Shown: positions 15,204 to 64,000, numbered from the stretch's first letter. The stretch: DNA of 64,000 bases from a bacterium (GCA_028282845.1 JANQGY010000013.1:197350-261349), one strand, 5' to 3'. Numbers and translations are program-made. The notes: generated by a model not told the origin, from the sequence alone.

Positions 15204-15211
15204 ATATTTTT

Positions 15212-16449: not shown

Positions 16450-16450
16450 T

Positions 16451-27316: not shown

Positions 27317-27385
27317 TTATAATTCTAATTTTATAAGTTGGATCGTTTTTACCAAGATTTTGATGAAAAATTTGGAGGAAATAAT

Positions 27386-28165: not shown

Positions 28166-28173
28166 GAGTTGCC

Positions 28174-29145: not shown

Positions 29146-29260
29146 AAGCATTTTGCGGAAAAGTAAATAACAGTTTTATATACATAATCCGGCTTTTGCA
29201 AAACGGATGCTAACTTGTTATAGTTCTTATTGATTAACCGTTAAATGGAAAGTAATAGGA

Positions 29261-37803: not shown

Positions 37804-38784
37804 TTACCAATAACGAATAGTTAAATATTTTATTAATTCTTCATAGGTCTTTTTATTTATTCCATCTAAAAATTTCTCGGGTGATATAATTACATACTTT
37901 GATTGATTTTGCAAGTGCTCCCGCCAAGTTGTCTCCATATCTTTATTGCTGCATTTGTATTGTTTATTAAGTAGATCTAGATTTTCAGAAGGAATTATAT
38001 GAACATGTAAATAATCTGATGCTTTTAATCTTTCATTTTGTCTATTTTTAATTAACTGTTCAGTCCATAGCGTTTGTCTCATTAACTGATAAAATGGCTC
38101 AAAGTAATAACAATAATGATTTTCACTTTTTAATTGCTTTGAACCATTTATCAAATCAGTATATCTTCTCTGACGTTCTTTACCTTTGCATTTCTCAGGA
38201 TTGGCTTTGCAGCCTTCTTTTGCTTTGTTTAGGTTACCGTAATGTTCAGTATATTTCCATTCAATAGGGATTAACCACGTCTTGCCATCTTTGTGTACTG
38301 CATGAATTAATGCGTCTATCGAAGTACAATTGCTTCCTCTTCTTGATGTTTTTTCATTTAGATTATCAATATAACTCACTGCTTCAAATTGGATATATGC
38401 AGGATCAAAATCATCAGTAATTATAGGTAAAACATCTATAAAATCATTTGAAATATTATTTGCTAAGGATAAAGTTGCATCTTTACCATGTCTTAACGGG
38501 AAAAGATGATTAACACACGCAATTTGTGATGACAAAATGTGTCCGGTAGGTTTTTTACCTCCCCACCAAGAAATCCCATTTTCAGCAAAATAATTAATAG
38601 CATCATCTTTAATGGGGTGGAAAAGGTTTTTATTAAAATCAGTTAATACAAAATCTCTTTCTGTTTTTTTATATATTGCTCCTCCACGACCATCATAAAA
38701 TACAGGATTCTTATCCTTAATTAAATTTAATCCCTTTTTACGCTGTTCTTCTTGATAATGTGATGCCATATATTTTTTCTTCAC
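37804..38784 (-). CDS. Hypothetical PD-(D/E)XK nuclease-like protein inserted between sufB and sufC
   Basis: 326-aa ORF with candidate catalytic D157..E175-W-K177 (SIDALIHAVHKDGKTWLIPIEWKYTE). Visibly lower GC than the flanking suf genes. No adjacent methyltransferase. Confidence 0.5.
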   Translation of the reverse strand: MKKKYMASHYQEEQRKKGLNLIKDKNPVFYDGRGGAIYKKTERDFVLTDFNKNLFHPIKDDAINYFAENGISWWGGKKPTGHILSSQIACVNHLFPLRHGKDATLSLANNISNDFIDVLPIITDDFDPAYIQFEAVSYIDNLNEKTSRRGSNCTSIDALIHAVHKDGKTWLIPIEWKYTEHYGNLNKAKEGCKANPEKCKGKERQRRYTDLINGSKQLKSENHYCYYFEPFYQLMRQTLWTEQLIKNRQNERLKASDYLHVHIIPSENLDLLNKQYKCSNKDMETTWREHLQNQSKYVIISPEKFLDGINKKTYEELIKYLTIRYW

Positions 38785-41130: not shown

Positions 41131-41461
41131 CTCCCCCTAAAATAGGGGGAGACGTTGAGTGAAACGAAACGGAGGGGGTATTAACAAAGTATGTCATTCT
41201 GAAAACCCGATTCATTGGGGGTGAATTCCCACTATCATTGCGATCCCGACTTGTCGGGGGACGAAGAATCTATAGTCTTTCACCCGTCTATCCTTCGGAC
41301 ATCTCCCCTCCAAAGGCTGACAAGCCCTCGAGGGTAGACAAAGGAGGGGTGAATAGTATTGTCATTTCCAACTTGATTGGGAATCTATACTTAAATTGGA
41401 TTCCCGCTTTCGCGGGAATGACAAATAATAAGTGTAGAGACGTAGCATGCTACGTCTCTAC
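41131..41461. repeat. Cluster of GC-rich palindromic hairpin elements (REP/BIME-like)
   Basis: ctcccccta-aaa-tagggggag (41131..41151), cccgac-tt-gtcggg, ccctcgaggg, attcccgc-tttc-gcgggaat (41400..41419), and the perfect 28-bp palindrome gtagagacgtagcatgctacgtctctac (41434..41461). Confidence 0.7.
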
Positions 41462-41593: not shown

Positions 41594-42529
41594 TTACAAT
41601 CCCGTTTCAGCTACTACTTCTTTTACGTGATCTGCAGTATTTGCGAGCGCGGCTTTCTCGTCCTCAGTTAGATCAATTTCTAATACTTTTTCAATTCCAT
41701 CAGCACCAATAACACAAGGTACACCAATGAAATAACCATCAATTCCGTATTCACCTTCACAAAGTGCTGCTGAAGGTATTACGCGTTTTTTATCTTTCAA
41801 GTAGGCTTCCACCATTTCCATGATTGATGCAGCAGGGCTGAAGAAGGCACTGCCATTGCCAAGTAGTTTTACGATCTCGGTTCCGGCTTCGCGGGTGCGT
41901 TTTTCAATTGCTTCAATCTTCTCTGTGGAAAGCAATTTATCAATTGGTACTCCACCGACTGTTGCTAATCTTGAAAGCGGAACCATTGTCGGTCCGTGCC
42001 CACCAAGCACAACACAGGAAACATCCTGCGCGGAAAGTCCGGTTTCCATTGCAATGAAAGCGCGGAATCTACCGGAATCCAAAGCCCCGGCCATTCCAAC
42101 TACGCGGTTTTTGGGGAATCCGCTAACCTTGTAGAATGAGTATACAATTGCATCCAACGGATTGGATACAACGATAACAAAGGCATTCGGCGCGTATTTT
42201 TTTACATTGTTGGCAACATTGGTAATGATCTTTAAATTAATTTCGAGCAGATCATCACGGGTCATGCCGGGTTTGCGCGGTACACCGGCGGTGATCACCA
42301 CAACATCTGATCCTTCAATATCTTTGTAGTCACTTGTACCGGTGATGTTGGCATCGTAACCATCGTGCGGTCTCAATTCCATAATGTCCAAAGCCTTACC
42401 TTTTACCATTCCCTCGACTTCGGGAATATCAAGAACAACAATGTCGCCAAGTTCTTTTTGCGTGCCGATCAGTGCCAATATGCCACCAATTTGTCCACCG
42501 CCAATTAAGGCGATCTTTTTTCTAGCCAT
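41594..42529 (-). CDS. mdh: Malate dehydrogenase (LDH-like type)
   Basis: KIALIGGGQIGG Rossmann motif, ITAGVPRKPGMTRDDL and GGHGPTMVP. Confidence 0.95.
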   Translation of the reverse strand: MARKKIALIGGGQIGGILALIGTQKELGDIVVLDIPEVEGMVKGKALDIMELRPHDGYDANITGTSDYKDIEGSDVVVITAGVPRKPGMTRDDLLEINLKIITNVANNVKKYAPNAFVIVVSNPLDAIVYSFYKVSGFPKNRVVGMAGALDSGRFRAFIAMETGLSAQDVSCVVLGGHGPTMVPLSRLATVGGVPIDKLLSTEKIEAIEKRTREAGTEIVKLLGNGSAFFSPAASIMEMVEAYLKDKKRVIPSAALCEGEYGIDGYFIGVPCVIGADGIEKVLEIDLTEDEKAALANTADHVKEVVAETGL

Positions 42530-42621: not shown

Positions 42622-43893
42622 TTATACGTTCTCTTTGATCCACTCAGCCGTGATTGATTTTGGTCGTGTGATCGGTATACCTAACGCACGGTTAATTACC
42701 ATTTGTGATACCATGCCCATTGCTCTTGAAATACTGAATAGTACAGTGTAAAAACTAAATTCGGTCATTCCGAAATGATAGAGCAAAGAACCCGATGCTG
42801 CATCAACATTGGGCCAGGGATTCTTGGCTTTCCCTTGTTCCTTCAGTACATTTGGAACAACATCAAACAGATCACTTACAATATCAAACACCGGATCACC
42901 TTTAATATGTTTTTTACCAAAATCAATGAAAGCGGTAAAACGTGGATCGGGGCAGCGTAGTACGGCATGTCCATAACCGGGAACTACTCTACCACTATTT
43001 AAACGATCCCATACAAATTGACGTAAATCATCCTGGGATGGTGAGCCTCCAAAGTGGTCTTTGATCTCAAGTACAAATTTTAAACATTCCTGATTTGCGA
43101 GTCCGTGTAGTGGTCCGGCAAGTCCGTTTAATCCGGCCGAAACCGCATAATATGGATCGGATAATGCAGATGCCACAGTTAATGCACTAAATGCGCTGAC
43201 GTTGCCACCTTCGTGATCGCAGTGCAGCATTAAATATAGCCGCATCAACTTTTTCAAGATTCCATCGGGATCGTCAATTCCAAGCATGTGGGCAAAATTT
43301 GCCCCCCAATCTAATTCCTTATCAGGGGCGATAAGATCGCCTTTGTCAAATCGCATGCGATATACTCCGGCACCAACGGCAGGAAGTTTTGCGATCAATC
43401 TAATCGCATCTTCCAAAATTGCTTTCCAATAATCCTGTTTTTGCATTCCTTCATCATAGCGTTGTCTGAATACAGATTCCTTTTCCATCACAAGGATTGC
43501 AGTGTTGAACATTGCCATCGGATGTGAATCCTTAGGCATTGCTTTTAATACATCCCAAACATATTCAGGCACTTCGGAATGTTCAGAAAACTGTGCTTGC
43601 AGATCTTGCAACGCAGCTTCATCGGGTAATTCCCCGGTCAGCAGTAAATAGAAGACCTCCTCCGGTAAAATTTCGGTGATCTCCAATAGCGGTCTGCCTC
43701 GAATAATCAGACCTGAGTCGGCTGATACCGCTGAGGTATCGCAAACAAGTCCTTTTACTCCACGCATTCCGCCGTAAGCCTGCGCAACCGTTACATTGCT
43801 AACAACTTTATCTCCTTTTTCTTCGAGCAGTTGTTGAGCTTCATAACGCCAATCGGGGATTTTTTTACTTAATGCTTCTAGTAAATTCGGCAT
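42622..43893 (-). CDS. gltA: Citrate synthase
   Basis: GGMRG, HCDHEGGNVSA, GPLHGLANQ and PGYGHAVLR catalytic blocks. Confidence 0.93.
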   Translation of the reverse strand: MPNLLEALSKKIPDWRYEAQQLLEEKGDKVVSNVTVAQAYGGMRGVKGLVCDTSAVSADSGLIIRGRPLLEITEILPEEVFYLLLTGELPDEAALQDLQAQFSEHSEVPEYVWDVLKAMPKDSHPMAMFNTAILVMEKESVFRQRYDEGMQKQDYWKAILEDAIRLIAKLPAVGAGVYRMRFDKGDLIAPDKELDWGANFAHMLGIDDPDGILKKLMRLYLMLHCDHEGGNVSAFSALTVASALSDPYYAVSAGLNGLAGPLHGLANQECLKFVLEIKDHFGGSPSQDDLRQFVWDRLNSGRVVPGYGHAVLRCPDPRFTAFIDFGKKHIKGDPVFDIVSDLFDVVPNVLKEQGKAKNPWPNVDAASGSLLYHFGMTEFSFYTVLFSISRAMGMVSQMVINRALGIPITRPKSITAEWIKENV

Positions 43894-44071: not shown

Positions 44072-44215
44072 CTATTTCTTAATCGGCTTTTTTACTTTGC
44101 GAACGCTGTTGCTAGCACATTTAGGACAAGCCCGTTCCATCGGCACTTTTCTATCGTAAGGTCCGGTAAATTCGTGTCCGCAACGTAAGCATTTAAAATC
44201 TACTATCTCAGCCAT
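44072..44215 (-). CDS. 47-aa zinc-ribbon protein (below the ORF-track size cutoff), last gene of the kor-hdr operon
   Basis: My translation: MAEIVDFKCLRCGHEFTGPYDRKVPMERACPKCASNSVRKVKKPIKK. CxxC-x17-CxxC. It starts 14 nt after the hdrA stop with a purine-rich gagag upstream. Confidence 0.6.
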   Translation of the reverse strand: MAEIVDFKCLRCGHEFTGPYDRKVPMERACPKCASNSVRKVKKPIKK

Positions 44216-44229
44216 AATTTCTCTCGCTT

Positions 44230-46728
44230 CTATGCGCTTGGACTTATTCCGATATCGGGTTTATCGGTTTTGGGGATTACAGTTTTGGATTTCTTTTTAG
44301 CTTTTTTCGCCTCCGCTTTTTCGCGATCCTCTTTCAGCACTTTCATTGTCTGTTCAACCTCTTCTTTGGTAACCTCCTTGCGCATTTCCTCTAATTCCTT
44401 CATCGTCCGAGCCCATTTTTGTCCCTCGGCCGCGCTAATCCATTCAAGCTGTAAACGTTCGGGGCGTATTCCAAGCCGTTCGAGTTTGTCCCATAATTTT
44501 TCAACGCGTTTTTGCGTCCAACGATTAGCATCAATGTAATGGCAGTCAGCAAAATGGCAACCCGATACAAGCACAATTGGCGCCCCTTTTTCAAAAGCGT
44601 GCAATACAAACTCAGAGTCAACACGCCCGCTGCACATTGTCCGTATTATTCGTTGAGTTGTAGGATATTGCAAGCGCGATAATCCTGCCAAGTCTGCTCC
44701 GGCATATGAACACCAATTACAGGCGAATACCGTTATTGTATCCATGGGATTTTTTTCAAGCGAAGCATCAATTTGAGATATATATTGTGAGTCCTCAAAA
44801 TGCTTCATAGCAAGTGCATCAAAATTACATTCTGCTGCACAAGTACCGCAGCCTTTGCACATTGCTTCAATCACTTCTGCTTTAAGTCCGGCTTTGGCGT
44901 CGGCTCCGCGAATTGCATTAAACGGACATACATTCACGCATATTCCGCAAGATGTGCAAAGATCAGTGTAGCACTCCGAAGTAATTGCCTCAATATTTAT
45001 CATATCGGAATTAAGCAATACTTCCGAACGTGCCGCTGCTGCACTTGCCTGAGTTACACTGTCTTTCACATCTTTGGGGAACTCGGCACACCCGGCAAAG
45101 AAAACTCCGCCCGTTGGTGCATCAACCGGTTTCAATTTTGGATGCGATTCCATGAAAAAGCCATCTTCAGTTTTAGATAATGTCAGCAGTTTTTGAACTG
45201 CGCTACTATCACGTCGTGGAATTACTCCAACTGAAAGTACCACTAAATCAAAGTCATAATCTTTAACGGTATTCGCCACCGTGTCCTCAACAATCAGTTT
45301 TAGATCATTAGTTTTCGGATCCTCGAAAATTTCACCCGGTAAACCACGGATGTACTGAACACCCGCTTTTTTACTGCGAATGTACAGATCTTCGAATCCT
45401 TTGCCGAAAGCCCGGATATCCATATAGAAAACTGATATTTCAGTATCGGGATAATGATCTTTTAATAATAGACTATCCTTAACCGTGTTCATACAACAGA
45501 TATTGCTGCAATATGGGTTTCCAACTTCGGAATGCGAACGCGATCCAACACATTGAATAAAGGCAATTCGCTTTGGTACTTTATGATCGGTCGGTCGAAT
45601 AAAATGTCCTTCTGTTGGTCCACCCGCCGAAATCAGTCTCTCAAATTCCATGCTCGTAATAACGTTTTCGTATTGAGTATAACCGTATTCATCCATTTCT
45701 GTCGGATCGTATACATCCATTCCGGTGGCAACAATCACCGCACCAACGTCCAATTCGATTATCTCATCTTTCATATCGAAATCGATACATTCCTTTTCGC
45801 AAACATCGGCACATTTACCGCAGGCAATCGGATTATTTCCAAGACAGTCACCATCATTTAAGATATACACGGATGGGACGGCTTGCGGGAAAGGCATATA
45901 TATCGCTTTGCGGGATGAGAAACCTTGCTGAAATTCATCGGCTACAGCAACCGGACAAACCTTTTCACACTCGCCGCAGGCATTGCATAGGTCTTCATCA
46001 ACATAACGAGCCTTGCGGCGCACCTTTACTTTAAAGTTGCCAATATAACCGCTAACGTCCTCGACTTCGCTGTAAGTGTATAAATTAATATTGGGATGTC
46101 GACCGACATCCATCATTTTCGGTCCGAGTATTCATATGGAACAATCCATAGTGGGGTAAGTCTTGTCTAATGTAGCCATTAGCCCACCAATGGATGCCTC
46201 CTTCTCAACCAAATTAACTTGATAACCGGCGTCGGCAAGATCTAAAGCCGATTGAATACCGGCTACGCCACCGCCGATAACCAATACTTCCTTTTTCATT
46301 GGTACTTTGGATTCTATTTGTTCTTCAAGCAACCGCGCCCTTGCAACCGACATTCTGACCATGTCTTTAGCTTTGCTCGTGGCTCCATCATAATCATCTA
46401 AATGTGCCCAACTACAATGCTCACGGATATTGGTCATCTCCATTAAATAGGGATTCAAACCGGCTTCCTGAACACAGTTTCTGAAGGTTGGTTCATGCAT
46501 GCGCGGCGAGCAAGATGCCACAACTACTCTATTCAAGTTGTGTTCTTTTATATATTTTTTAATTTCCTGTTGTCCGGGTTCCGCACAAGTGTATTTGTTC
46601 ACCACCGAACAAGTTACATTCGGAAGAGTGGCAGCATAATCGGAAACCGCTTGGCAATCAAGCGATCCGGCAATATTGCGACCACACTCACAAACGAACA
46701 CACCTACGCGTAGATCGTTTTCACTCAT
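44230..46728 (-). CDS. hdrA: Heterodisulfide reductase subunit A-like flavoprotein fused to an MvhD domain; selenocysteine (UGA at 46132..46134) read-through joins two track ORFs
   Basis: Both ORFs are in the same frame. The junction reads [36 protein letters not shown], a contiguous HdrA motif. Also present: FAD motif [16 protein letters not shown], four CxxCxxCxxxCP clusters, and MvhD block [31 protein letters not shown]. Confidence 0.85.
46101..46124 (-). promoter_or_regulatory. Candidate bacterial SECIS hairpin downstream of the hdrA UGA
   Basis: gaccga-N12-tcggtc stem-loop starting 8 nt 3' of the UGA. Confidence 0.4.
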
Positions 46729-46767
46729 TCTATTTTCCTGTCTTATCGACTAGTTTAGTAAAATTTT

Positions 46768-47907
46768 TCATTTCATACGTTCCAATACGACGGTAGAAAT
46801 ATCTTTAATATCCATCTCGTAATTATCCTTTACAAAATCATCTTTCATTGTGCAGGAGAGATGGATATGGCATTTCGGACAAGCAACAGTAAGTACATCA
46901 GCTCCGGTCTGTTTGGCTTGTCTTAATCTTTCTTTTTGGATTCTTTTTGATGTAATATCACAATTCATCCACGCACTAACACCGCAACACAATGAGCGCT
47001 TGTTGTTTTGCATCATTTCATGATAATGTTCGCCATCGTTGTGCTGCAACACTTGGCGCGGTTCATCATATATTCCAAGATGCCTTCCTAATCGGCAGGG
47101 ATCTTGGAAGGTTACATTAATTTCAGGCTCCCTGAGATCTAATTTTTCATTTTCAATTTGCTCGGCAATAAATTGACTCATGTGCATCAATTTCTGATTT
47201 ACTTTGAAACCATTATCAGGATATAAATTGGCAAACGAACTCATACATTCAGCACATGAGAATAATATTGTTTTAGCTCCGGTTGCATTGACTGCATCAA
47301 TATTCTTCTGTGCTAGCATTTTGAAATTCTCCACATCGCCATTCCATAAAAGATCGTGTCCGCAGCAGCGTTCATCTTTCATCACAACCGGTTTAACGCC
47401 AAGCTTATTCAATATTTTAATGCTGCTTTTAGCAGCTTCAGTTGTGGAAATATTTATATCGTCAAAGAATATATCGAAATATGGGGCGCAGCCAACGTAG
47501 TAGAGAATTTCACCTTCCTCAGCGGTATCTAAATCGTTAGTAACCCAATCCATTCTATTCTGATTGATGTTCTCTGTGGTCATCACTTTTTGTAATAATT
47601 CCATAGCGCCCGAATGTGAGCATTTCCCCTTGAAACCGGAATCTTTGGCTGAAGTACGGACAATTTGATTTAGCCGACTATAGTCGATGTTTGCGGGGCA
47701 GACCGCATCGCAGCGGCGGCAGGTGAGACAGCTCCATAAGTCATAATCAACAAATAGTGAATCATATTCATTTCGAATGGTTTTGGTCAGCATGGAGCGC
47801 GGTGAATAGGAATTGCTGAACAATGAGACCGGACAAACCGCTGTACATTTACCACATTCTAAGCAGCCGTAAGCATTGGCAGCTTTGATCTGTTCAACGA
47901 GATTCAT
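46768..47907 (-). CDS. Fused HdrC-like (2x[4Fe-4S]) / HdrB-like (two CCG domains) Fe-S protein
   Basis: CLECGKCTAVCP and CLTCRRCDAVCP, then CCG-domain motifs (CCGH, DPCRLGRH, LCCGVSAW, ACPKCHIH). Confidence 0.8.
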   Translation of the reverse strand: MNLVEQIKAANAYGCLECGKCTAVCPVSLFSNSYSPRSMLTKTIRNEYDSLFVDYDLWSCLTCRRCDAVCPANIDYSRLNQIVRTSAKDSGFKGKCSHSGAMELLQKVMTTENINQNRMDWVTNDLDTAEEGEILYYVGCAPYFDIFFDDINISTTEAAKSSIKILNKLGVKPVVMKDERCCGHDLLWNGDVENFKMLAQKNIDAVNATGAKTILFSCAECMSSFANLYPDNGFKVNQKLMHMSQFIAEQIENEKLDLREPEINVTFQDPCRLGRHLGIYDEPRQVLQHNDGEHYHEMMQNNKRSLCCGVSAWMNCDITSKRIQKERLRQAKQTGADVLTVACPKCHIHLSCTMKDDFVKDNYEMDIKDISTVVLERMK

Positions 47908-50219
47908 TATTTAATCTTCCTTGCATAATCATTCACAATCTCGATGAATTTCTCGGTGTTTTTGCCTGATACAGTCGCATATTCCAAACGATTCTTATCA
48001 TAGCCAAGCATATAAGCTATCTGCTGAACCTTGGCATAAGTTTCCGCAAACCGTTTTGCTCCAAATTCATAATGACATTCATCAGCAGCGCAGCCAACAA
48101 CTAATACACCGGCTGTATCTTTTTCCAATGCTTTTAAAATGAATGATGACTCGATCCTACCGGTACACATGGTTTGGATGAAGATCAAATTTGTGTCTCT
48201 TACTTTAATTTTTGAGAATTGCTCAAAATCCGCTCCATTCCAACTGCAGGAAAAAACCACAATAGATTTTTTATTCAGATCAATCGCCTGCAATTTGAAA
48301 TCCAGCCAATCAGAAGTGAATCTACCGGGTTGAATGACAGAAGAAGGACAAAGCGCAACACAGGTTCCACAACCGCGGCATAGATCAGGATCAATTTTTG
48401 ATATTTTGACCTCATCACCCATATCAATAAGCTGAATTGCATCATAATCACAGACGGTAACACAATCGCCGCAGCCACGGCAGAGACTTGCTGTAACTAG
48501 TGGAATATAACTATCAACCTCAATTGGAATGTCTTTTCCATTTTGTCCTTTAATAACAGCTTCCAATTTTCCATTTTTCAAGATCGTGTCGTCAAATTCT
48601 GATGGAAGTCTTAGAACATAATCATTTTGACCGTCTGAAGTGTGCACAACCGATAAACCTTTATTACATTCTGAAACACAAATAAAGCACTCATCGCAAG
48701 GACCGCAGCGTAAACATCTTTGAGCTTCTGCGATCGCTGTTTTTTCATCAAAACCGTATTCTACTTCGCTAAAATTCCCTTTCCGCTTAGTAACATTTTG
48801 CATTGGAATTTTTGCTCTTTTGATCTTGGGCTGAGTATTATAGTCAATTTTTATTTCAGCTTCAGTTGACTTGGAGCCATCTGATGTTGAGGTCAAATCT
48901 TCCCCGTTAATAAATTGTTCGATTGAACGAGCGGCAATATGTCCTTGTGCTATTGCATCAATTACCGTATTTGGACCGGTAACGGCATCGCCACCGGCAA
49001 ATACGCCGGGAATATTGGTTGCCATTGTCGATTCATCAGCCAATAATGTTTGCCATTTAGATATGTCTATTTCATGGTTTTTGGGCAAAAATGATAGATC
49101 AGGTTTTTGACTGATAGCAGGAATTATCACATCAGCATCAATAATAAATTCTGAATCTTTGATCGGAATTGGTTTGGCGCGACCACTTTCATCGGGTTTA
49201 CCAAGCTTCATCTTAACACACTCAAGTCCGGTTGCAGTGCCATTTTTACCAACGATTTTATTTGGAGCGGCAAGATAATGAATTTTGATGCCCTCTTTTT
49301 CGGCATCTTCTATTTCTTCGTCATTAGCGGGCATTTCATCTCGGGATCGGCGATAAGCAATGGTAACCTTTGAACCGAGTCTCAAAGCCGTTCGAGCAGC
49401 ATCAATTGCCGAATTTCCACCGCCGATTATTATTACATTTTCACCGGGTTTTTTAGCGGTGCCAAGGTTTACTGCGCGTAGAAAAGTCACCGCATCTAAA
49501 AAACCTTTAAATTCGTCTTCACCAGGTATACCTAGTTTTTTGCCAACATGGGCACCAATTGCTAAATAGACGGCATCAAAATCTTTCAATAATTTATTAT
49601 AGGCAGCTTTTCCGGATATTTTTTTGCTTGTTATAATTTTAACACCAATATTTTTAATGTAGCCGATCTCTATATCTAAAATGTCGCGTGGCATGCGGTA
49701 ACTTGGAATTCCTGCAATCAGCATTCCGCCGGGTTCCGATAGTTCTTCAAATATTGTTACATTGAAGCCACTCTTGGCAAGATCGTGTGCAGCAGTTAGA
49801 CCGGCGGGTCCCGAGCCGATTATAGCAATTTTCTCTGTTCTTTTTCCGGCAGTCTTTCCCGGTTTTGGAATGGGATTCTTCAACTCGTAGTCGGCTACGA
49901 ATCTTTTTAAGGCACGTATTGCAACCGGAGCATCTATTTGGTTGCGGTTACAATAACTTTCACAGGGATGTGTACAGACTCTACCGCAAATTCCCGGTAA
50001 TGGATTCTTTTCACGAACCACATGCAAAGCTTCATGAAATTTTCCTGCCGCAATCAATGAAACATAGGCTTTAACATTAACGCCTGCCGGACAGGCCTCC
50101 ATACAAGGTGAAGGATCAACAATTCCAATTGGATAGAACACATTCGGTTTATCCGAAAAGGAAACGGTATTCTTATGTTTCCTAATAAAATTTTTAAAGT
50201 TTGATTCGGTAGTTGGCAT
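47907..50219 (-). CDS. GltD/NfnB-like NAD(P)H-binding flavoprotein fused to a 2x[4Fe-4S] ferredoxin and an MvhD domain
   Basis: N-terminus CMEACPAGVNV, PLPGICGRVCTHPCE and IAIIGSGPAGLTAAHDLA; second dinucleotide site VIIIGGGNSAIDAA; CRGCGDCVTVC and CRGCGTCVALCP; MvhD block VFSCSWNGAD..CTGRI..VVGCAADECHY. Confidence 0.8.
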   Translation of the reverse strand: MPTTESNFKNFIRKHKNTVSFSDKPNVFYPIGIVDPSPCMEACPAGVNVKAYVSLIAAGKFHEALHVVREKNPLPGICGRVCTHPCESYCNRNQIDAPVAIRALKRFVADYELKNPIPKPGKTAGKRTEKIAIIGSGPAGLTAAHDLAKSGFNVTIFEELSEPGGMLIAGIPSYRMPRDILDIEIGYIKNIGVKIITSKKISGKAAYNKLLKDFDAVYLAIGAHVGKKLGIPGEDEFKGFLDAVTFLRAVNLGTAKKPGENVIIIGGGNSAIDAARTALRLGSKVTIAYRRSRDEMPANDEEIEDAEKEGIKIHYLAAPNKIVGKNGTATGLECVKMKLGKPDESGRAKPIPIKDSEFIIDADVIIPAISQKPDLSFLPKNHEIDISKWQTLLADESTMATNIPGVFAGGDAVTGPNTVIDAIAQGHIAARSIEQFINGEDLTSTSDGSKSTEAEIKIDYNTQPKIKRAKIPMQNVTKRKGNFSEVEYGFDEKTAIAEAQRCLRCGPCDECFICVSECNKGLSVVHTSDGQNDYVLRLPSEFDDTILKNGKLEAVIKGQNGKDIPIEVDSYIPLVTASLCRGCGDCVTVCDYDAIQLIDMGDEVKISKIDPDLCRGCGTCVALCPSSVIQPGRFTSDWLDFKLQAIDLNKKSIVVFSCSWNGADFEQFSKIKVRDTNLIFIQTMCTGRIESSFILKALEKDTAGVLVVGCAADECHYEFGAKRFAETYAKVQQIAYMLGYDKNRLEYATVSGKNTEKFIEIVNDYARKIK

Positions 50220-50755
50220 TAATTTGTTAATTCTTTTCCGTAAGTGTAGCCTCTTTCGAGGGCTTCAATATTTTTATCGATAAATCTATCCGGCACCGAT
50301 CCGGGTAGTGCTTTCTTCATTGCATCAATACTTACAACTCCGGTTATCGCCGTAAAAAATCCGACCATCACAACATTGGCAAAAATACGGTTGCCCATTT
50401 CCTCGGCAATTCGTGTAGCCGGGATGGAGAATAATTTTACATCCTTCCGTTTGGTCTTTGGTTTTACGAGGTCGGTATCGGTCAATACTATACTTCCTTT
50501 TTTCGGATCACCGATGAATTTCTCATAAGCTTCCTGTGACATAGCTACCAATATCTCCGGTGTGACAATGTAAGGGTACAATACAGCATTGCTATCAATC
50601 ACAACTTGAGCAGAACAAGCACCGCCGCGTGCTTCGGGTCCAAAACTTTGTGTGAGTGTGGCAAATTTACTGTCAAATAATGATGCAGCTTTTCCGATCA
50701 GCATTCCTGATTTAATTATTCCTTGACCGCCAAATCCTGAAAATCTAATGTCCAT
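50219..50755 (-). CDS. korG: 2-oxoacid:ferredoxin oxidoreductase gamma subunit
   Basis: MDIRFSGFGGQGII start motif. The stop overlaps the start of the downstream GltD-like gene by 1 nt (TAATG). Confidence 0.88.
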   Translation of the reverse strand: MDIRFSGFGGQGIIKSGMLIGKAASLFDSKFATLTQSFGPEARGGACSAQVVIDSNAVLYPYIVTPEILVAMSQEAYEKFIGDPKKGSIVLTDTDLVKPKTKRKDVKLFSIPATRIAEEMGNRIFANVVMVGFFTAITGVVSIDAMKKALPGSVPDRFIDKNIEALERGYTYGKELTN

Positions 50756-51656
50756 TTGGTCCTCTATACGGTATATATTTGTCACCTAATTTTTTAGAGA
50801 GGAATTGATCTCTATTGGTATAAAAATCAGGTTTTTCTTTATCAATAAATTTTCCTACCACTATTTCTTTTTGATAATCAATATCAATATCCCGGGTATC
50901 TGCTCCGTGTTGTATTTTTGCGCTGTTATGGTAGAAGCGCATTAGGTCTAAACCGGAGCCGAGTCGATTACGCCTCGCGTAGAGAGTAGGGCAAGGCGAT
51001 ACAACTTCAATAAATGAGAAGCCCGGTTTAAGCAATGCTTCAGCTATTGATTTGGTAGTTCTGCGAATATGTAGAGCCGTCCAGCGTGCTACATAAACTG
51101 CACCACTGGATTCAGCAAGATAAGGCAAATTAAAGGGGAACTCATAAGCCCCAAATGGAGCGGTGGAAGCATTTGCCTCTTCCGGTGTGGTTGGTCCGGC
51201 TTGACCACCCGTCATGGCATAATTGAAATTATTAATACAAATAATTGTAAGATTCATATTGCGCCGGGCAGCATGTATAAAATGATTTCCACCGATAGCT
51301 GCAATATCTCCGTCTCCGCTTATCACAACAACCTTAAGCTCAGGATTACCAAGAGCCAGTCCGGTTGCAAATGGTACTGCGCGTCCGTGTGTAGAGTGAA
51401 ATGAATCCAATCTTAAATAACCCGCCGCACGTCCTGAGCAGCCAATACCGGAAACGACCGATACCTTATTACGATCCAAACCTGACTTTTGTAATCCCGC
51501 AATAAAAGCAGTTATAACTGTACCAATTCCGCAGGTCGAGCACCAAATATGCGGTAATCGCTCGGTGCGTAAAAAGTCAGTCATTGGATGTTGCAGTTTA
51601 TCAGGAGCTTGGGGTATCTTTAAAGTACTTGTAGTTGGTGCTGAAATTTCGCTCAT
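50745..51656 (-). CDS. korB: 2-oxoacid:ferredoxin oxidoreductase beta (TPP-binding) subunit
   Basis: WCSTCGIG, GIGCSGR, GDGD..AIGGNH TPP motif and NNFNYAMTGGQ. Confidence 0.9.
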   Translation of the reverse strand: MSEISAPTTSTLKIPQAPDKLQHPMTDFLRTERLPHIWCSTCGIGTVITAFIAGLQKSGLDRNKVSVVSGIGCSGRAAGYLRLDSFHSTHGRAVPFATGLALGNPELKVVVISGDGDIAAIGGNHFIHAARRNMNLTIICINNFNYAMTGGQAGPTTPEEANASTAPFGAYEFPFNLPYLAESSGAVYVARWTALHIRRTTKSIAEALLKPGFSFIEVVSPCPTLYARRNRLGSGLDLMRFYHNSAKIQHGADTRDIDIDYQKEIVVGKFIDKEKPDFYTNRDQFLSKKLGDKYIPYRGPNGH

Positions 51657-52813
51657 TTTACACCTTTCTTGATTGCTTTCAAAATATCATTCGGGTCATG
51701 GACCCATCCTCCGGCATGCGGTACACCAATGGTAGTTGCTTTGCCTGCTGCGCATCTTTCAACTTCAATTGAGACTTGTCCCAAATTAATTTCAGGGACA
51801 ATAAATGCTTTAACCTTTGAACTTAATTTTTTAATAAGTTTTTCAGGAAATGGCCAAACCGTGATTAGGCGCATAATACCAACTTTCATTCCTGCTGCAC
51901 GGGCATCCTGAACTGCCTTTAGGGCAACACGTGAAGTAATTCCATAAGAAATAACAATGACTTCCGCATCATCAATCTGATCGGTTTCGATCATACGAAT
52001 ATCTTCTTCATTCTTGATTATTTTATCGACCAAATGATTAACGTTCTTATCCTGAGCATCAGCATTGATAACTGGATAACCACGCTCATCATGAGTAAGT
52101 CCGGTAATATGAATGTTATATCCGTCTCCGGCTTTGATCATTGGTCCGACGGAATTATCGCCATTGAATTTGTATGGTCTATAATCTTCCTTTTTCCCTT
52201 TATAAAAATTGCGCGGAACGATGTCAATCTTATCAGCTTCAGGAATGACAACTTTCTCCGTCATGTGTCCTACGCACTCATCCATCATAAATAGAACAGG
52301 TACTCTGTATTTTTCCGAAAGATTGAAAGCCTTCACCGTAAGATCAAAACATTCCTGCGGTGAATTGGGTGAAATGGCAATTATTTCATAGTCGCCGTGC
52401 GATCCCCAACGCGCTTGCATCATATCGGCTTGACCGGTAAGGGTCGGCAATCCTGTTGAAGGTCCGCCGCGCTGTACATTCACTACAACACAGGGTGTCT
52501 CCATCATTATCGCTAAACCTAAATTCTCCATCATTAGCGAGAAGCCCGGTCCGGATGTTACCGTCATGGATTTTGGTCCCGCCCAAGCCGCACCGACTAC
52601 CGCTGCCATGGATGCAAGTTCATCTTCCATTTGGATAAACATGCCGCCGACTTTTGGGAAACGTTCTGCCATGCGTTCGGCTACTTCCGTCGAGGGGGTA
52701 ATTGGATAACCTGCTAAGAATCGGCAGCCAGCGGCAATGGCACCTTCGGCGCAGGCGTGGTCACCATCAATATAATGACTTCCGGTGGCAACACCAATTG
52801 GATCAGCTTTCAT
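51653..52813 (-). CDS. korA: 2-oxoacid:ferredoxin oxidoreductase alpha subunit
   Basis: GDHACAEGAIAAGCRF.AGYPITPSTE, TVTSGPGFSLM and RGGPSTGLPT. Confidence 0.9.
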   Translation of the reverse strand: MKADPIGVATGSHYIDGDHACAEGAIAAGCRFLAGYPITPSTEVAERMAERFPKVGGMFIQMEDELASMAAVVGAAWAGPKSMTVTSGPGFSLMMENLGLAIMMETPCVVVNVQRGGPSTGLPTLTGQADMMQARWGSHGDYEIIAISPNSPQECFDLTVKAFNLSEKYRVPVLFMMDECVGHMTEKVVIPEADKIDIVPRNFYKGKKEDYRPYKFNGDNSVGPMIKAGDGYNIHITGLTHDERGYPVINADAQDKNVNHLVDKIIKNEEDIRMIETDQIDDAEVIVISYGITSRVALKAVQDARAAGMKVGIMRLITVWPFPEKLIKKLSSKVKAFIVPEINLGQVSIEVERCAAGKATTIGVPHAGGWVHDPNDILKAIKKGVK

Positions 52814-53115
52814 ACTTTTGCCTCTTTCTTTAATACATCATTCACATCAGGGTTGATTGGTTTGCCCTCAACAACAAATATCGCAAATTCAGGACAGATC
52901 ATTTCACATAACGTACAATTAACACAGGCATTATGCTTCAGCACATTTGGATAATGATAACCTTTGCGGTTGAAATCTGTGGATAATTCCAATACGTCCC
53001 GAGGACAATATTCAACGCAAAATTCGCAGCCTTTGCACTGTTCAACGTCAATCTGAACATCGCCGTGCGGGATTTCAATTTTGTTTATATCGAGCGGTAC
53101 GCGCCAATAATTCAT
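52810..53115 (-). CDS. korD: 2-oxoacid:ferredoxin oxidoreductase delta (2x[4Fe-4S] ferredoxin) subunit
   Basis: CKGCEFCVEYCP and CVNCTLCEMICP. Confidence 0.85.
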   Translation of the reverse strand: MNYWRVPLDINKIEIPHGDVQIDVEQCKGCEFCVEYCPRDVLELSTDFNRKGYHYPNVLKHNACVNCTLCEMICPEFAIFVVEGKPINPDVNDVLKKEAKV

Positions 53116-53126
53116 AATGATTCCTT

Positions 53127-53402
53127 TTATTGGACGAAGTTCTCGCCCTCTTCCTTTTTTACTTGTAAATAGAATTCGCAGACATCACAGCTTTCAACAT
53201 TCTTGTTTAGTAACGTCCGGCAGGTTGGTTCACCATCTTGATATGTACCGGTTATGTGCCAACAATAGCGACCACCGAAAAGCCCGCCATTGATACCATT
53301 AAAAGATTTATATTGTACGGAATGGCATTTGCCATATTTCTTAACGTTTTTACCGCCATGTTCACGACCACAACCGTTAAAATCCCAACAATTCATTTTC
53401 AT
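53127..53402 (-). CDS. Small Cys-rich two-CW-like domain protein, first gene of the kor-hdr operon
   Basis: NCWDFNGCGREHGG ... GRYCWHITGT ... CDVCEFY pattern (two C-W motifs). Separated from korD by 11 nt. Confidence 0.55.
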   Translation of the reverse strand: MKMNCWDFNGCGREHGGKNVKKYGKCHSVQYKSFNGINGGLFGGRYCWHITGTYQDGEPTCRTLLNKNVESCDVCEFYLQVKKEEGENFVQ

Positions 53403-60182: not shown

Positions 60183-60914
60183 TTAGGAATCACTTTTAAG
60201 ACGATCAATTTCGGCTTTTATTTCTTCAATAATTTCCTCATTGACAATTACTTTTTTATCTCCTTCCCGAGTAGAAAATATAACAAATACTTTACCACCG
60301 TATTTTTCCTCAAAATCGATGAAACTTTTACTCATTCTTTCGGTTATTTTATAATTGGCAAAATTCGCATTAGCTGTAATAGGTTTGATTTGAATACCAA
60401 ATGCTTTGTCACCAACTTTTCCAATGTAATCAATATCTCCTGCGTGGTCAAGTTCAGGGTCACTTTCTACAAACTCAACATTAGAAAATAATTTGACAAG
60501 TATGTCACTGATTACGGATTTTTCGAGGAGAAAACCATCATATGTTCTAACAATTGTCAACTCATATATGTAGTCTTTACAATCTTGTAGTGTTAAATCT
60601 TTGAAAGCTGCCGTCCATTCAGGGATTACTATTTCTGTTATCTTTGAATATAGTCTTTCGCCTAGTTCATCCAAAGTCTTTTTTGTTACTTTTATAGGTT
60701 CTTTCGTTTTAGTATATGCTTCTTCAAAATAATATTGTTCCCATTCTTCTATAACTTTGGGTTGACATTTTCTTATTAATGCCATTACTTCACCAACTTT
60801 GGGTGGTCTAGTTAGCTGATAATTACTTGCAGTATAGTTAAGGACTCTTTCTTTCTTCCCAAATGGTTTAGCATATTTTTTTATATCTTTTTTTGTCATT
60901 TTATATAGATTCAA
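60183..60914 (-). CDS. Putative type II restriction endonuclease (PD-(D/E)XK-like)
   Basis: Candidate motif GDIDY-x12-IQIKP (D160/D162..Q175-x-K177). Last gene of the operon with the DNA methyltransferase. Low GC. Confidence 0.45.
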   Translation of the reverse strand: MNLYKMTKKDIKKYAKPFGKKERVLNYTASNYQLTRPPKVGEVMALIRKCQPKVIEEWEQYYFEEAYTKTKEPIKVTKKTLDELGERLYSKITEIVIPEWTAAFKDLTLQDCKDYIYELTIVRTYDGFLLEKSVISDILVKLFSNVEFVESDPELDHAGDIDYIGKVGDKAFGIQIKPITANANFANYKITERMSKSFIDFEEKYGGKVFVIFSTREGDKKVIVNEEIIEEIKAEIDRLKSDS

Positions 60915-61257
60915 TTCTTAAATCTGGTAATGTAGTTGGATTTTGTTGATTTGGAAGATTATTCCAGCCGTTGCGCATACTTTGCCTCCTGTTTAATATA
61001 CTTTCAGCTCTACTTTGTAAAGAATTAAGATTTTCCTCAATTTCAGTTAAATTTCTTATTATATAGAAACCTCTATTACAACTGCCTATAAGATTACCTC
61101 TATTAATTGCGTTACGAATTACATCTCTCATTTCAACTTCAACGCCGCGATCAGAAATTCCAAAAAATACTGCTAATTCGGTTGCAGTTATTGAATTTTC
61201 GCGACCTATGTGACCATTATTATTCAGATACAATATCAATTCATGAATTTCTGGCAT
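60901..61257 (-). CDS. Small putative winged-helix DNA-binding protein between the methyltransferase and nuclease genes
   Basis: 118 aa. ITATELAVFFGISDRGVEVEMRDVIRNAI resembles an HTH. It overlaps both neighbours (17 and 14 nt). Confidence 0.4.
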   Translation of the reverse strand: MPEIHELILYLNNNGHIGRENSITATELAVFFGISDRGVEVEMRDVIRNAINRGNLIGSCNRGFYIIRNLTEIEENLNSLQSRAESILNRRQSMRNGWNNLPNQQNPTTLPDLRIESI

Positions 61258-62545
61258 AATTATCCTCCAGATTAATAAATTTATTTAAATATTTAAAATC
61301 AAATTCTTTGTCAACATTTACTAATCCATTTTTTATTAAATGGGCATTGACAAAAGTTTTATTTTTTAAATAAACGTACCCTAGAATATTGTTATTTGAG
61401 TCAAATTTTATTTCATCATGCTTTAGAAAAATTCTCTGATTTTTAAATTTTTGTTTTAGAAATTCTATCGCTTGACCATTTTTGGTTGAATCTGTCTTTA
61501 CTCCTATCAGGCGTATTTTCAAACCATTTTCTAAGGCAATAAGCTCCGGTGAAATTATTTCCTTTACTTTGTGGTATTCTTCTCTGTGTTGTGAATTTTT
61601 ATCAATCTTTGATCCATATTGTAATTTTTTTGGGTCAACCTTTTTATTAAAAGTGTGATTATCTTTAAAAATATAGGGTAGTTTTTGAATCCTATCTTTG
61701 AAGTTTGTATCTTTTGATTTTTGTTCAATGAATTTGTATTCGGAGGGGAATATTTCGTTTTGATTTATGTCTAACTTATCTTTGATAAAAGGAATAAAAT
61801 CTTTATTAATTTCATATCCCCAAGAATTTCTTTCTAAATTTTTAGCTGCTAAGGAAGTTGTTCCACTACCCAAAAATGGATCTAAAATTGTATCACCAAC
61901 GAATGAAAACATTTTAATTAATCTTTTTGGTAATTCCTCAGGGAACATTGCAATATGTCCATCCTGCTTTGCTCCATTAAAATTCCAATGTCCTGAGAAA
62001 TATTTCTTCCATTCTTCAGTTGTCAATTTTGATTGTTCCTTTAATATTGGATCAGGTTTAATCGGAGTACCAAGTTTTTTTAAAATTAAAATGAATTCGT
62101 AGTCGATTGATACAATACCATTTTTTGGGAATGGAAAACTTCCCATAATGCTGGCTCCACCAGTTGTATTCATTGTAGTTTGCTTTTGCCAAATAATTGC
62201 ACCCATATAATCAAAGCCAATAGATTCACAGAATTTGATTATTTCTGTTCTTATGGGAATTACTTTATATCTTCCATAATAAACTGCGCGGGCAAATTGG
62301 TCACCGATATTGACACATAACCTACTTCCATTTTTTAGCACTCTATGACATTCACTCCATACAAGATTTAAGTTATTGATATAATCCTCATAACTATCAT
62401 CAAAGCCTATTTGATTTTCAGCTTCATAATCTTTTAATTGCCAATAAGGAGGTGAAGTAATAATTAAATCAATTGTCCGATCTTTTAGCTCAGACATATT
62501 TCGGCAATCGCCTGTTATTATTGTATGGATTGTTTTAATGTTCAA
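61241..62545 (-). CDS. Beta-class N4/N6 DNA methyltransferase with a C-terminal degenerate SNase-like (OB-fold) domain
   Basis: Motif IV DLIITSPPY precedes motif I DPFLGSGTT. The C-terminus IRLIGVKTDS...ILGYVYL...NAHLIKNGLVNV resembles thermonuclease but lacks the DAPE catalytic residues. Confidence 0.88.
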   Translation of the reverse strand: MNIKTIHTIITGDCRNMSELKDRTIDLIITSPPYWQLKDYEAENQIGFDDSYEDYINNLNLVWSECHRVLKNGSRLCVNIGDQFARAVYYGRYKVIPIRTEIIKFCESIGFDYMGAIIWQKQTTMNTTGGASIMGSFPFPKNGIVSIDYEFILILKKLGTPIKPDPILKEQSKLTTEEWKKYFSGHWNFNGAKQDGHIAMFPEELPKRLIKMFSFVGDTILDPFLGSGTTSLAAKNLERNSWGYEINKDFIPFIKDKLDINQNEIFPSEYKFIEQKSKDTNFKDRIQKLPYIFKDNHTFNKKVDPKKLQYGSKIDKNSQHREEYHKVKEIISPELIALENGLKIRLIGVKTDSTKNGQAIEFLKQKFKNQRIFLKHDEIKFDSNNNILGYVYLKNKTFVNAHLIKNGLVNVDKEFDFKYLNKFINLEDNYARNS

Positions 62546-62896: not shown

Positions 62897-63946
62897 TTAA
62901 TTAACTGAAATTATATTTTTATTCTTAGCAATTATCTCTCCGATAATCACTGCTTTTATATCTGATAATTTGTTGAACTCATTAATATATTCTTCCGCTT
63001 TTTCGGGTGCAAGCGATATTAAAAGTCCACCGGAGGTTTGCGCATCGGCGCATAGCAATTTATCTATTTCGCTGATATTCTTCGAAAAGGCTACCTTATC
63101 TTTGATAAAATTGAAATTCCGTTTGGTGCCGCCGGGTAAAATACCTTTTTCGGCGGTTGCTTTTACGGTTGGTAAAAATGGCAAATCAGCATAATTAATA
63201 TTTGCCGATACGTTGCTGGCCTGACACATTTCCGCTAAATGTCCGAGCAGTCCGAAACCGGTTACATCGGTAGCGGCGTTCACGCCGACACTTTGCGTCA
63301 CTTCAGCCGCTAATTTATTTAGTGTTGCCATTGATTTGGCAGATGCTTGTACGGCTTTGGAATCAGCCGCCCCGCGCTTTACCGCCGTGGCGATGATGCC
63401 GGTGCCGATCGGTTTAGTAAGGATTAACTTATCGCCAACTTTGGCGGTACTATTGGTAATTAATTTAGCTTCATCAATTTCGCCGGTTACAACCAAGCCG
63501 TATTTCGGTTCGGGATCGTCAACACTATGTCCGCCAACGATCGAAATCCCCGCCTCTTCCGCTTTATCTATTCCGCCCTGCAGTATTTTGGACAGGTCGG
63601 ATTTGGGCAGTGTATTGATCGGAAAGCCGATGATATTTAGGGCAAATAATGGTTTGGCGCCCATAGCATAAATATCGGATAATGAATTAGCGGCAGCAAT
63701 TTGACCGAAAATGTAGGGATCGTCATCAATCGGTGTGAAAAAATCAACGGTTTGCACTAATAATCGTCCATCGCCGAGGCGCACTACGGCGGCGTCATCT
63801 TTGTCATCGTAACCGACAAGGATGCGTTCATCACGCTTTGACTTAAGGTTACTCAATACTTGAGCAAGGTCCTCCGGACCGATTTTGCAAGCTCAGCCCG
63901 AACCGTGTGTAAGCGTAGTTAAACGTATTTTTTCTTTTTTGTCCAT
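62897..63946 (-). CDS. selD: Selenide, water dikinase (selenophosphate synthetase) SelD, selenocysteine-containing (UGA at 63893..63895)
   Basis: Extending the track ORF upstream in frame gives MDKKEKIRLTTLTHGSG-U-ACKIGPEDLAQVLSNLK..., the SelD glycine-rich active-site loop with U at the Cys/Sec position. The rest is AIR-synthase-like (DDAAVV, VQTVDFFTP, GGHSVDD). Confidence 0.9.
63864..63888 (-). promoter_or_regulatory. Candidate bacterial SECIS hairpin downstream of the selD UGA
   Basis: gcaa-aatc-ggtcc-gga-ggacc-ttgc begins 4 nt after the UGA. The apical loop contains GG. Confidence 0.5.
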
Positions 63947-64000
63947 TATATTCTAAAAATTAAAGACAGAATTTGACGGTTTTTATATGGAATTTGCAAA

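Follow-up and report, generated by a model that had tools for sequence, protein, structure and literature searches.

In the Mvh-Hdr complex, MvhD carries the electrons of the donor module to HdrA, whose FAD bifurcates them to ferredoxin and, via HdrC and HdrB, to heterodisulfide (structures 5ODC and 7BKB). The soluble HdrA2B2C2 of Methanosarcina acetivorans bifurcates electrons from F420H2 to ferredoxin and CoM-S-S-CoB (the heterodisulfide of coenzymes M and B), and also oxidizes reduced ferredoxin; its authors suggested that bacterial homologues might use NADH and other disulfides (PMC5296606). In the reductive tricarboxylic acid (TCA) cycle cluster of tubeworm symbionts (Ca. Endoriftia and the Escarpia symbiont) and Thioflavicoccus mobilis, korDABC is flanked by hdrCB on one side and by hdrA-flxDCBA on the other, beside tfrAB and aclAB (PMC6315080, PMC11636981), and operon-like co-expression of kor-hdr-flx has been shown in Endoriftia (PMC11636981). 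The bacterial DNA stretch GCA_028282845.1 JANQGY010000013.1:197350-261349 (64,000 nucleotides, hereafter the window) contains, on the minus strand at 44072-53402, nine consecutive open reading frames (ORFs) that include a korDABG set for a 2-oxoacid:ferredoxin oxidoreductase (OFOR) and a set of Hdr-like genes. The chances are slightly better than even that these nine genes form one functional unit, predicted to consist of KorDABG and a dedicated soluble HdrA-based module that is linked to NADP(H) and bifurcates or confurcates electrons. Such an Hdr-like complex would probably link the 2-oxoglutarate step to the NADPH pool by splitting or merging electron pairs.

Like the Endoriftia-type cluster, the window has kor on the same strand as hdrA, hdrB, hdrC, an MvhD-type protein gene (FlxD there) and a pyridine-nucleotide module; the role proposed for the symbiont cluster, bifurcation that delivers low-potential electrons to 2-oxoglutarate:ferredoxin oxidoreductase (OGOR), is biochemically uncharacterized too. 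In the Endoriftia-type cluster, however, the NADH module is made of four separate proteins (FlxABCD) with no GltD/NfnB-ferredoxin-MvhD fusion, kor is interleaved between hdrCB and hdrA whereas here it lies upstream of the hdr genes, tfrAB and aclAB belong to the cluster, HdrC and HdrB are separate proteins, and the hosts are autotrophic Gammaproteobacteria. The window has no flx, tfr or acl, and instead has genes of citrate synthase and of citrate lyase (citDE-like and citF). FlxABCD-HdrABC of Desulfovibrio resembles the present locus in being a pyridine-nucleotide-linked Hdr module for which bifurcation to ferredoxin and a disulfide has been proposed, but the window has MvhD domains only, without flxA, flxB or flxC, and its NAD(P)H module is GltD/NfnB-like. 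The preliminary description of this DNA, which had proposed an Hdr bifurcating unit coupled to kor, holds as to architecture, which is undescribed in the searchable literature, but its general idea has precedents (PMC6315080, PMC11636981). No description of the arrangement of kor with GltD-MvhD, HdrCB and HdrA2 was found in that literature, which covers few subscription journals, and in the papers checked on Marinimicrobia, WOR-3, Caldithrix and Chloroflexi hdr is listed apart from kor. The cluster is an uncharacterized, widely conserved Hdr-type system tied to a defined TCA enzyme, a general idea already published.

The genes are ordered two-CW protein, korD, korA, korB, korG, the fusion gene, hdrCB, hdrA-mvhD with a selenocysteine (Sec) codon, and zinc ribbon, and the ORF coordinates and junction checks show that the order, overlaps and gaps had been described correctly from the outset. 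The two-CW gene is followed after 11 nt by korD; korD/korA and korA/korB overlap by 4 nt each, and korB/korG by 11 nt, with the korG ATG at 50755, a start that matches an independent gene call (178 aa) on an identical contig. The korG/fusion and fusion/hdrCB junctions both read TAATG, each with a 1-nt overlap, and gaps of 39 nt and 14 nt precede hdrA and the zinc-ribbon gene, respectively. By these junctions, korG, the fusion gene and hdrCB, as well as korD, korA and korB, are translationally coupled. Pfam and NCBIfam searches with curated cut-offs, on which all domain assignments are based, bear out the anatomy of the nine genes, including the presence of two MvhD domains (Pfam FlpD in the fusion protein and in the HdrA C-terminus).

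Conservation of kor-Hdr synteny had been set beforehand as a test of the proposed linkage. The contigs of five diverse homologues of the fusion protein were inspected first; one genome per GTDB species was scanned with an alignment of the fusion protein, and the nine window proteins were mapped by tblastn onto 88 loci (numbered with the prefix L). The counts refer to non-redundant loci with a separate fusion gene and enough flanking sequence (at least 3 kb upstream in the case of kor). The synteny is strongly conserved: in 24 of 28 loci the fusion gene is immediately preceded, on its own strand, by korA, korB and korG; hdrCB follows the fusion gene in 27 of the 33 whose downstream flank suffices (it is missing from three archaeal loci and also from L006, L026 and L031), hdrA is present in 23 of 28, and the zinc-ribbon gene follows hdrA in 22 of the 28 with enough downstream flank. 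The carriers span at least seven named phyla, including Marinimicrobia/Fidelibacterota, KSB1, Zixibacteria, Eisenbacteria, WOR-3, Thermoanaerobaculia and Planctomycetota. Because the identical gene order recurs in many phyla, the arrangement is judged to be far beyond chance, and this cross-phylum synteny supports the functional link of kor to the Hdr-like genes that had been proposed. Together with the translational coupling to kor, it argues for a module dedicated to the oxoglutarate step.

It is very unlikely that kor and the Hdr-like genes are functionally unrelated neighbours whose sole link is the free ferredoxin pool or chance co-regulation. Gene order and strand stay the same across the phyla listed, korG and the fusion gene overlap by a nucleotide here, the distance from kor to the downstream fusion gene is at most a few hundred bases in the other loci, and a variant, larger OFOR (korA-B-A'-B'-G-D; L004, L008, L060 and L088) still carries the same Hdr module directly downstream. 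On the side of independence, four loci have the fusion gene without kor (L032, L044, L046 and L069; one Spirochaetales and three archaeal), contact between Kor and Hdr proteins is itself a prediction, and promoter-like matches occur inside the operon, though at chance frequency: a scan for sigma-70 promoters and for terminators gave counts at the level of shuffled sequence, the promoter consensus of the FCB type (Fibrobacteres, Chlorobi and Bacteroidetes) being outside the scan.

The OFOR has a complete set of four subunits by Pfam and NCBIfam: KorD (52810..53115; Pfam Fer4, Fer4_7), the delta subunit with a 4Fe-4S dicluster; KorA (51653..52813; POR_N and PFOR_II), the alpha subunit; KorB (50745..51656; TPP_enzyme_C), the beta subunit that binds thiamine pyrophosphate (TPP); and KorG (50219..50755; POR; 178 aa from the ATG at 50755), the gamma subunit. 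KorA passes the 2-oxoacid:acceptor oxidoreductase alpha model NF006412 (578 bits, cut-off 411), and its top matches in the PDB are 1yd7_A and then 8ys5_A, the alpha subunit of 2-oxoglutarate synthase; the top PDB match of KorB is 8ys5_C, the OGOR beta subunit. By these comparisons the enzyme belongs to the Kor/Oor branch. The OGOR-specific NCBIfam models match below their cut-offs (alpha, 388 bits against 579; beta, the top match of KorB, 224 against 364; OGOR_delta, the top match of KorD, 77 against 125), and the assignment of 2-oxoglutarate as the putative substrate therefore leans mainly on TCA gene context. The larger OFOR sets directly upstream of the Hdr module (L004:5101-9957, L008:5072-9997, L060 and L088) comprise two alpha-like, two beta-like, gamma and delta subunits (korA-B-A'-B'-G/D), of which the second alpha is most like KorA of the window and the first beta most like KorB. 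Several Marinimicrobia loci (L012, L018, L021, L024 and L025, at about 500-2600 on the minus strand) encode a second, divergent OFOR alpha/beta pair, 32-41% identical to KorA and KorB, some 3 kb upstream and in the opposite orientation; this pair is absent from the window.

The HdrA protein (44230..46728, 832 aa), with MvhD fused at its C-terminus, is of the HdrA2 type (NF040770, 1189 bits, cut-off 1100). It has the N-terminal Fe-S domain, the thioredoxin-reductase-like FAD domain, and the inserted and C-terminal ferredoxin domains of a full-length HdrA, is collinear with residues 6-655 of 5odc_A (823 bits), and keeps every cofactor motif of bifurcating HdrA in that alignment. It is the most conserved protein of the cluster, with 57-90% identity across phyla. 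The C-terminal MvhD and the match to the HdrA2 model are shared with HdrA2B2C2 of M. acetivorans, in which, unlike here, HdrB2 and HdrC2 are separate and there is no GltD module, second MvhD or kor linkage. Likewise, the window shares with MvhAGD-HdrABC of hydrogenotrophic methanogens (5ODC) a collinear HdrA with the same cofactor motifs and Sec/Cys position, an MvhD adaptor, and HdrC-type dicluster and HdrB-type CCG folds, but has an NAD(P)H flavoprotein in place of the MvhAG hydrogenase, a fused and diverged (HdrD/EtfD-like) HdrC/B, and two MvhD domains. The host of the window, a bacterium, is not known to produce coenzyme M or B, and no genes for either were seen in the window.

The Sec codon in hdrA that had been proposed is well founded. 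The reading frame is uninterrupted through the TGA at 46132-46134, which aligns with a cysteine of the DCSIC motif in the solved HdrA (5odc_A), and TGA occupies this position in every kor-linked orthologue matched by a motif scan; in HdrA paralogues from different contexts the codon is TGT or TGC. Starting 20 nt past the UGA, comparative folding identified a hairpin resembling a selenocysteine insertion sequence (SECIS) (GGAUGUC-GGUC-GACAUCC, 46094..46111, minus strand), of which 7 of 7 pairs are kept in a cross-phylum alignment of 12 sequences with one compensatory change from U-A to C-G; Rfam at the gathering threshold reported no SECIS or other RNA family in the whole window. Because of the aligned cysteine, the conserved TGA, the conserved hairpin, the presence of selD in the window and the adjacency of selB to the cluster in L008, the Sec reading is sound. 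The selD gene itself (selenide, water dikinase; 62897-63949, minus strand) has an in-frame TGA in the active-site motif GSG*ACK, so that SelD is a selenoprotein too; a mechanical ORF list covers only the part of it after the TGA. No tRNA genes were found in the window.

The 770-aa fusion protein (47907..50219) comprises a GltD/NfnB-like NAD(P)H:FAD module with Fe-S, an extra cysteine-rich motif, a dicluster ferredoxin and MvhD (Pfam Fer4_20, Pyr_redox_2, Fer4_9 and FlpD), and passes NF009410 (551 bits, cut-off 516). Its closest homologues are labelled Marinimicrobia, Neomarinimicrobiota or Fidelibacterota. The N-terminal 520 aa are a close homologue of the NADPH-binding FAD/Fe-S subunit of NfnB type (Nfn, Stn), with PDB matches to the NfnB-type chains 9bov_A, 9n5u_A, 8oh5_C, 4ylf_B (336 bits) and 5jca_L (327 bits), and the protein also matches MvhD chains in the PDB. 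The C-terminal 200 aa (ferredoxin and MvhD) and the HdrA C-terminus are paralogues (32% identity, E = 2e-29), and the cysteine ligands of the fusion protein are invariant in the homologue alignment. The second Rossmann motif is GGGNSA, followed by YRRSR (invariant as YRRxR), a pattern that suggests NADP(H) in enzymes of the GltD family. Because of this motif and the rule that GXGXXA marks NADP(H) (PMC12054007), the nucleotide is suggested to be NADP(H) rather than NADH; the NAD(P)H site that had been ascribed to this protein is thus upheld in its domains and tentatively narrowed, by motif, to NADP(H).

In NfnAB and StnABC, the NfnB-type subunit with FAD, an NADPH site and two 4Fe-4S clusters is matched by the N-terminal 520 aa described above, but the operon encodes no NfnA (PyrK-like) or StnAB partner, and the protein instead ends in ferredoxin and MvhD and has Hdr proteins as partners. 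A GltD/NfnB-type domain is combined with HdrA also in HdrL of Desulfobacterota and in the type III HdrA of ANME-1 and Bathyarchaeota (PMC9012536, PMC12054007), but there it is inserted into HdrA, whereas here it is part of a separate protein ending in ferredoxin and MvhD beside an intact HdrA2-type HdrA. None of these systems has been reported next to kor; yet L060, L063 and L088, in which the NAD(P)H domain is inserted in a second HdrA-like protein, combine such an HdrA with kor, and the synteny scan recovered further inserted-GltD hdrA genes in Desulfobacterales and other loci. In a Spirochaetales locus (L032:8947-15629), the fusion gene occurs without kor or hdrA and is followed by hdrCB and then by Fer2_4/Pyr_redox_2/BFD and DAO genes that are proline/opine-dehydrogenase-like, and in an archaeon (L046:8947-15274) a 1027-aa fusion homologue has the same partner genes, with no kor or hdrA and no hdrCB detected. 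The gene content of these loci indicates that the fusion protein pairs with other dehydrogenases elsewhere and can work without HdrA.

These two loci favour a different placing of the bifurcation: an Nfn-like split at the NfnB-like FAD of the fusion, or two bifurcating flavins in series. NADPH electrons would then be divided between a low-potential branch and a high-potential branch running via MvhD and HdrCB, with HdrA serving mainly as the interface to ferredoxin or OGOR. Among solved structures, those nearest to the GltD half are themselves bifurcating NfnB-type subunits (9n5u_A, 8oh5_C, 4ylf_B and 5jca_L), and two bifurcation sites have been proposed for HdrA-NfnB fusions of ANME-1 (PMC9012536). 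Nevertheless, this placing is distinctly unlikely: the operon encodes no NfnA-like partner (PyrK-like, with [2Fe-2S] and FAD), and HdrA, the best conserved of the proteins, retains all cofactor motifs of a bifurcating enzyme.

The fused HdrC/HdrB-like protein (46768..47907, 379 aa) is a soluble Fe-S protein of the HdrD type (Pfam Fer4_8 and two CCG) with two CX2CX2CX3CP motifs and two complete CCG motifs (C..CCG..CxxC). Across 30 homologues every motif cysteine is invariant apart from C221 (kept in at least 90% of rows), and C96, H98, C316 and C352 are also invariant in the same set. The top NCBIfam match is TfrB (142 bits, below the cut-off of 385), and the HdrB model TIGR03288 matches with 27 bits against a cut-off of 345, a match at the superfamily level only. 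The top PDB sequence match is 9ojn, and an AlphaFold2 model (mean predicted local distance difference test score, pLDDT, 90.6) has its best fold match in the same structure, EtfD of M. smegmatis (TMq 0.75), followed by LutA, HdrB and HdrC; public annotations of the family read 'Fe-S oxidoreductase' or 'HdrD'. By sequence, then, the protein is no orthologue of the HdrB of methanogens, and its nearest kin are EtfD, TfrB, LdhH and the HdrD type. With mycobacterial EtfD (9OJN) and the HdrD-type proteins TfrB, LutA, GlpC and DsrK it shares two 4Fe-4S motifs and two CCG domains, but it is soluble and encoded with HdrA, whereas EtfD, which presumably carries a haem-binding domain and acts together with electron-transferring flavoprotein (ETF), is a membrane protein. 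Reduction of a disulfide or other high-potential acceptor by HdrB CCG domains had been proposed for the window; the CCG domains are indeed present, but the disulfide is only assumed, the HdrB model scores low and the fold is EtfD-like. Since the protein is nearer to EtfD, TfrB and HdrD than to methanogen HdrB, the third partner need not be a thiol, and a disulfide substrate is an assumption.

Candidate partners and fusions were considered and set aside. ETF was rejected because the etfBA genes, 13 kb away, lie outside the conserved cluster, although HdrC/B is EtfD-like. Fumarate as a third substrate via Tfr, as in Endoriftia, was rejected because there is no tfrA-like gene in the window or in most loci; frdAB is near the cluster in L008 only. 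An apparent MvhD-HdrCB fusion (P0199/L090) was rejected as Rosetta-stone evidence because its contig contains Ns and a frameshifted hdrA upstream. The window also contains, at 27338-31339 on the plus strand, etfB, etfA and then a gene (29261-31339) for a 692-aa EtfD-like, ETF-linked membrane oxidoreductase; it starts with hydrophobic helices, contains one dicluster and two CCG domains, and is a second HdrD-type protein of the window.

In the proposed mechanism, NADP(H) would react at the FAD of the GltD/NfnB-like domain, and single electrons would pass through the Fe-S clusters of the fusion protein and the [2Fe-2S] cluster of its MvhD domain to the FAD of Sec-HdrA, where the electron pair would be split. 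The low-potential branch would lead through the ferredoxin domains of HdrA to KorD or free ferredoxin, and the high-potential branch through the fused HdrC/B to an acceptor X at the two CCG clusters, with the zinc-ribbon protein as a small structural subunit on HdrA. The overall reaction would be 2 NADPH + Fd(ox)/OGOR + X(ox) <-> 2 NADP+ + Fd(red)/OGOR + X(red) (Fd, ferredoxin) and would be reversible; NADP(H) would replace H2 as the mid-potential couple, and the NAD(P)H flavoprotein with MvhD would take the place of the hydrogenase. Electron exchange among NAD(P)H, ferredoxin and a third substrate, as the preliminary description had it, is consistent with every domain predicted. The invariance of the Fe-S and CCG cysteines (or, for C221, conservation in at least 90% of rows) across homologues indicates selection on each of the three branches. 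Hydrophobic segments are lacking from all four proteins of the Hdr module, which is thus soluble.

The same proteins might instead form a non-bifurcating wire, in which electrons of OGOR pass to HdrA, MvhD and the GltD module and on to NADP+ (or the reverse) without energetic coupling, HdrCB being an extra electron-transfer or regulatory subunit and the whole being in effect a 2-oxoglutarate:NADP+ oxidoreductase. OFORs with an added NAD(P)+-reducing flavoprotein are known, such as the phenylglyoxylate:NAD+ oxidoreductase PadEFGHI, models of which match KorA, KorB and KorG weakly, and the 2-oxoglutarate:NADP+ oxidoreductase of Azoarcus evansii, a second OFOR with such a flavoprotein. MetFV-HdrCBA-MvhD of Sporomusa reportedly uses reduced ferredoxin and does not bifurcate (PMC9430772), and HdrA2B2C2 also carries out simple ferredoxin-dependent reactions (PMC5296606). 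A wire is unlikely, all the same, because the retention of HdrCB in 27 of 33 loci with both CCG motifs conserved (C221 at 90% or above, the rest invariant) would be hard to explain for a passive subunit, and passing electrons straight from about -500 mV to -320 mV would waste energy that HdrA-type enzymes normally conserve.

Several points weigh against a single bifurcating or confurcating unit of KorDABG and the Hdr module. The complex is predicted from sequence alone. HdrA already has an MvhD domain of its own, which leaves the docking place of the second MvhD unexplained; the NfnB-like FAD could itself bifurcate; and some bacterial Hdr modules, such as the Sporomusa one, are reportedly non-bifurcating (PMC9430772). 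The scores of the OGOR-specific models below cut-off for the alpha, beta and delta subunits make 2-oxoglutarate specificity putative. HdrC/B, not being orthologous to methanogen HdrB, resembles EtfD, TfrB and LutA, whose CCG sites are not all disulfide reductases, and no disulfide carrier, thiol-cofactor gene, Tfr or DsrC candidate was found within the conserved cluster. Direct docking of Kor on the Hdr module is nevertheless plausible. A further-reaching proposal, that of a widespread but so far unrecognized OGOR-Hdr supercomplex in which OGOR docks on Sec-HdrA, NADP(H) enters via the NfnB-like flavoprotein, two flavins are potentially bifurcating, and the EtfD-like HdrC/B serves a partner other than heterodisulfide (quinone, ETF or a small protein), is possible but doubtful.

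The two ends of the cluster encode small proteins. The last gene (44072..44215) encodes a 47-aa zinc ribbon of FmdB type (CxxC...CxxC) with matches below the cut-offs of its families (Zn_ribbon_8, 31.2 bits against 34.4; TIGR02605, 27.9 bits against 31.3); its four cysteines and the motif SNS(V/I)R are conserved in all aligned orthologues. In a WOR-3 locus (L038:9521-11461) and an Anaerolineae locus (L077:10022-12016), HdrA-MvhD carries the zinc ribbon as an in-frame C-terminal extension, and because of this fusion in two lineages (the Rosetta-stone argument) the zinc-ribbon protein is probably a subunit. The first gene (53127..53402) encodes a 91-aa two-CW domain protein with seven cysteines (NCBIfam NF045718, 76.6 bits, cut-off 35; no Pfam match); its orthologues lie directly upstream of korD in L009, L012, L013, L018, L021, L024 and L025, which are Marinimicrobia loci only.

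Directly downstream of the nine genes, the minus strand of the window encodes citrate synthase (gltA, 42622-43893) and malate dehydrogenase (mdh, 41594-42529), both identified by Pfam and NCBIfam. The same two genes follow the cluster on the same strand in the Marinimicrobia loci L009, L010, L011 and L013, and are on the opposite strand in L039. The only strong terminator-like hairpin of the minus strand follows mdh (41434-41461, 12 bp), with none comparable between the zinc-ribbon gene and gltA, and so the transcription unit may extend over 11 genes from two-CW to mdh. The cluster has further TCA neighbours in L004 (acn and idh) and in L008 (sucCD and frdAB). The window as a whole is an island of central metabolism, with citrate lyase, aconitase, isocitrate dehydrogenase, PrpD, acyl-CoA dehydrogenase, methylmalonyl-CoA mutase, carboxyltransferase and a Suf operon; no hydrogenase, formate dehydrogenase, MetFV, Flx, Tfr or ATP-citrate lyase genes are among its annotated ORFs, in agreement with the earlier statement that hydrogenase, formate dehydrogenase, MetFV and Flx partners are absent. 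Because the operon lies in a TCA gene island of this heterotrophic member of the Marinimicrobia, the 2-oxoglutarate-oxidizing, NADPH-forming (confurcating) direction is slightly more likely here, while in relatives with sucCD-frdAB and a multi-subunit OFOR (L008), ferredoxin reduction driven by NADPH for reductive carboxylation appears more likely.

The plus strand at 8006-17997 encodes an ATP-independent citrate lyase (an ACP-CitE fusion, i.e. citDE-like, and CitF) and a DASS/citrate transporter, the lyase genes being followed by aconitase, an isocitrate/homoisocitrate-type dehydrogenase and PrpD, and thus both citrate-cleaving (citrate lyase) and citrate-forming (citrate synthase) enzymes are encoded in the window. 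In L004 (2537-4824, minus strand), an NfnAB-like pair (a GltD-like protein of 479 aa and a DHODB_Fe-S_bind protein of 283 aa) is encoded divergently just upstream of kor-hdr, near aconitase and a monomeric isocitrate dehydrogenase. Elsewhere on the minus strand of the window, a REase-ARP/PD-(D/E)XK nuclease ORF (37804-38784) lies inside the Suf operon between the gene of a sufC-like ABC ATPase and sufB, and a restriction-modification pair (60183-62545) consists of an MjaI-type endonuclease and an N6/N4 DNA methylase with a C-terminal staphylococcal-nuclease domain.

Anaerobic bioenergetics has two open issues here: by what means bacteria provide or discard the very low-potential electrons of OGOR, and what function the many bacterial homologues of HdrABC have. 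The cluster ties a near-canonical bifurcating HdrA to one metabolic enzyme and one nucleotide module in a compact operon found in many uncultured phyla, among them the Marinimicrobia, which are widespread in the ocean. If the module confurcates, the energy of the oxoglutarate step would be conserved in a new way; if it drives reductive carboxylation from NADPH, it would bear on estimates of dark carbon fixation. Should the supercomplex exist, non-phototrophic, non-hydrogenotrophic bacteria would have a new route by which to make or exploit the electrons of the oxoglutarate step at about -500 mV, including NADPH-driven reductive carboxylation in organisms with a reversed TCA cycle.

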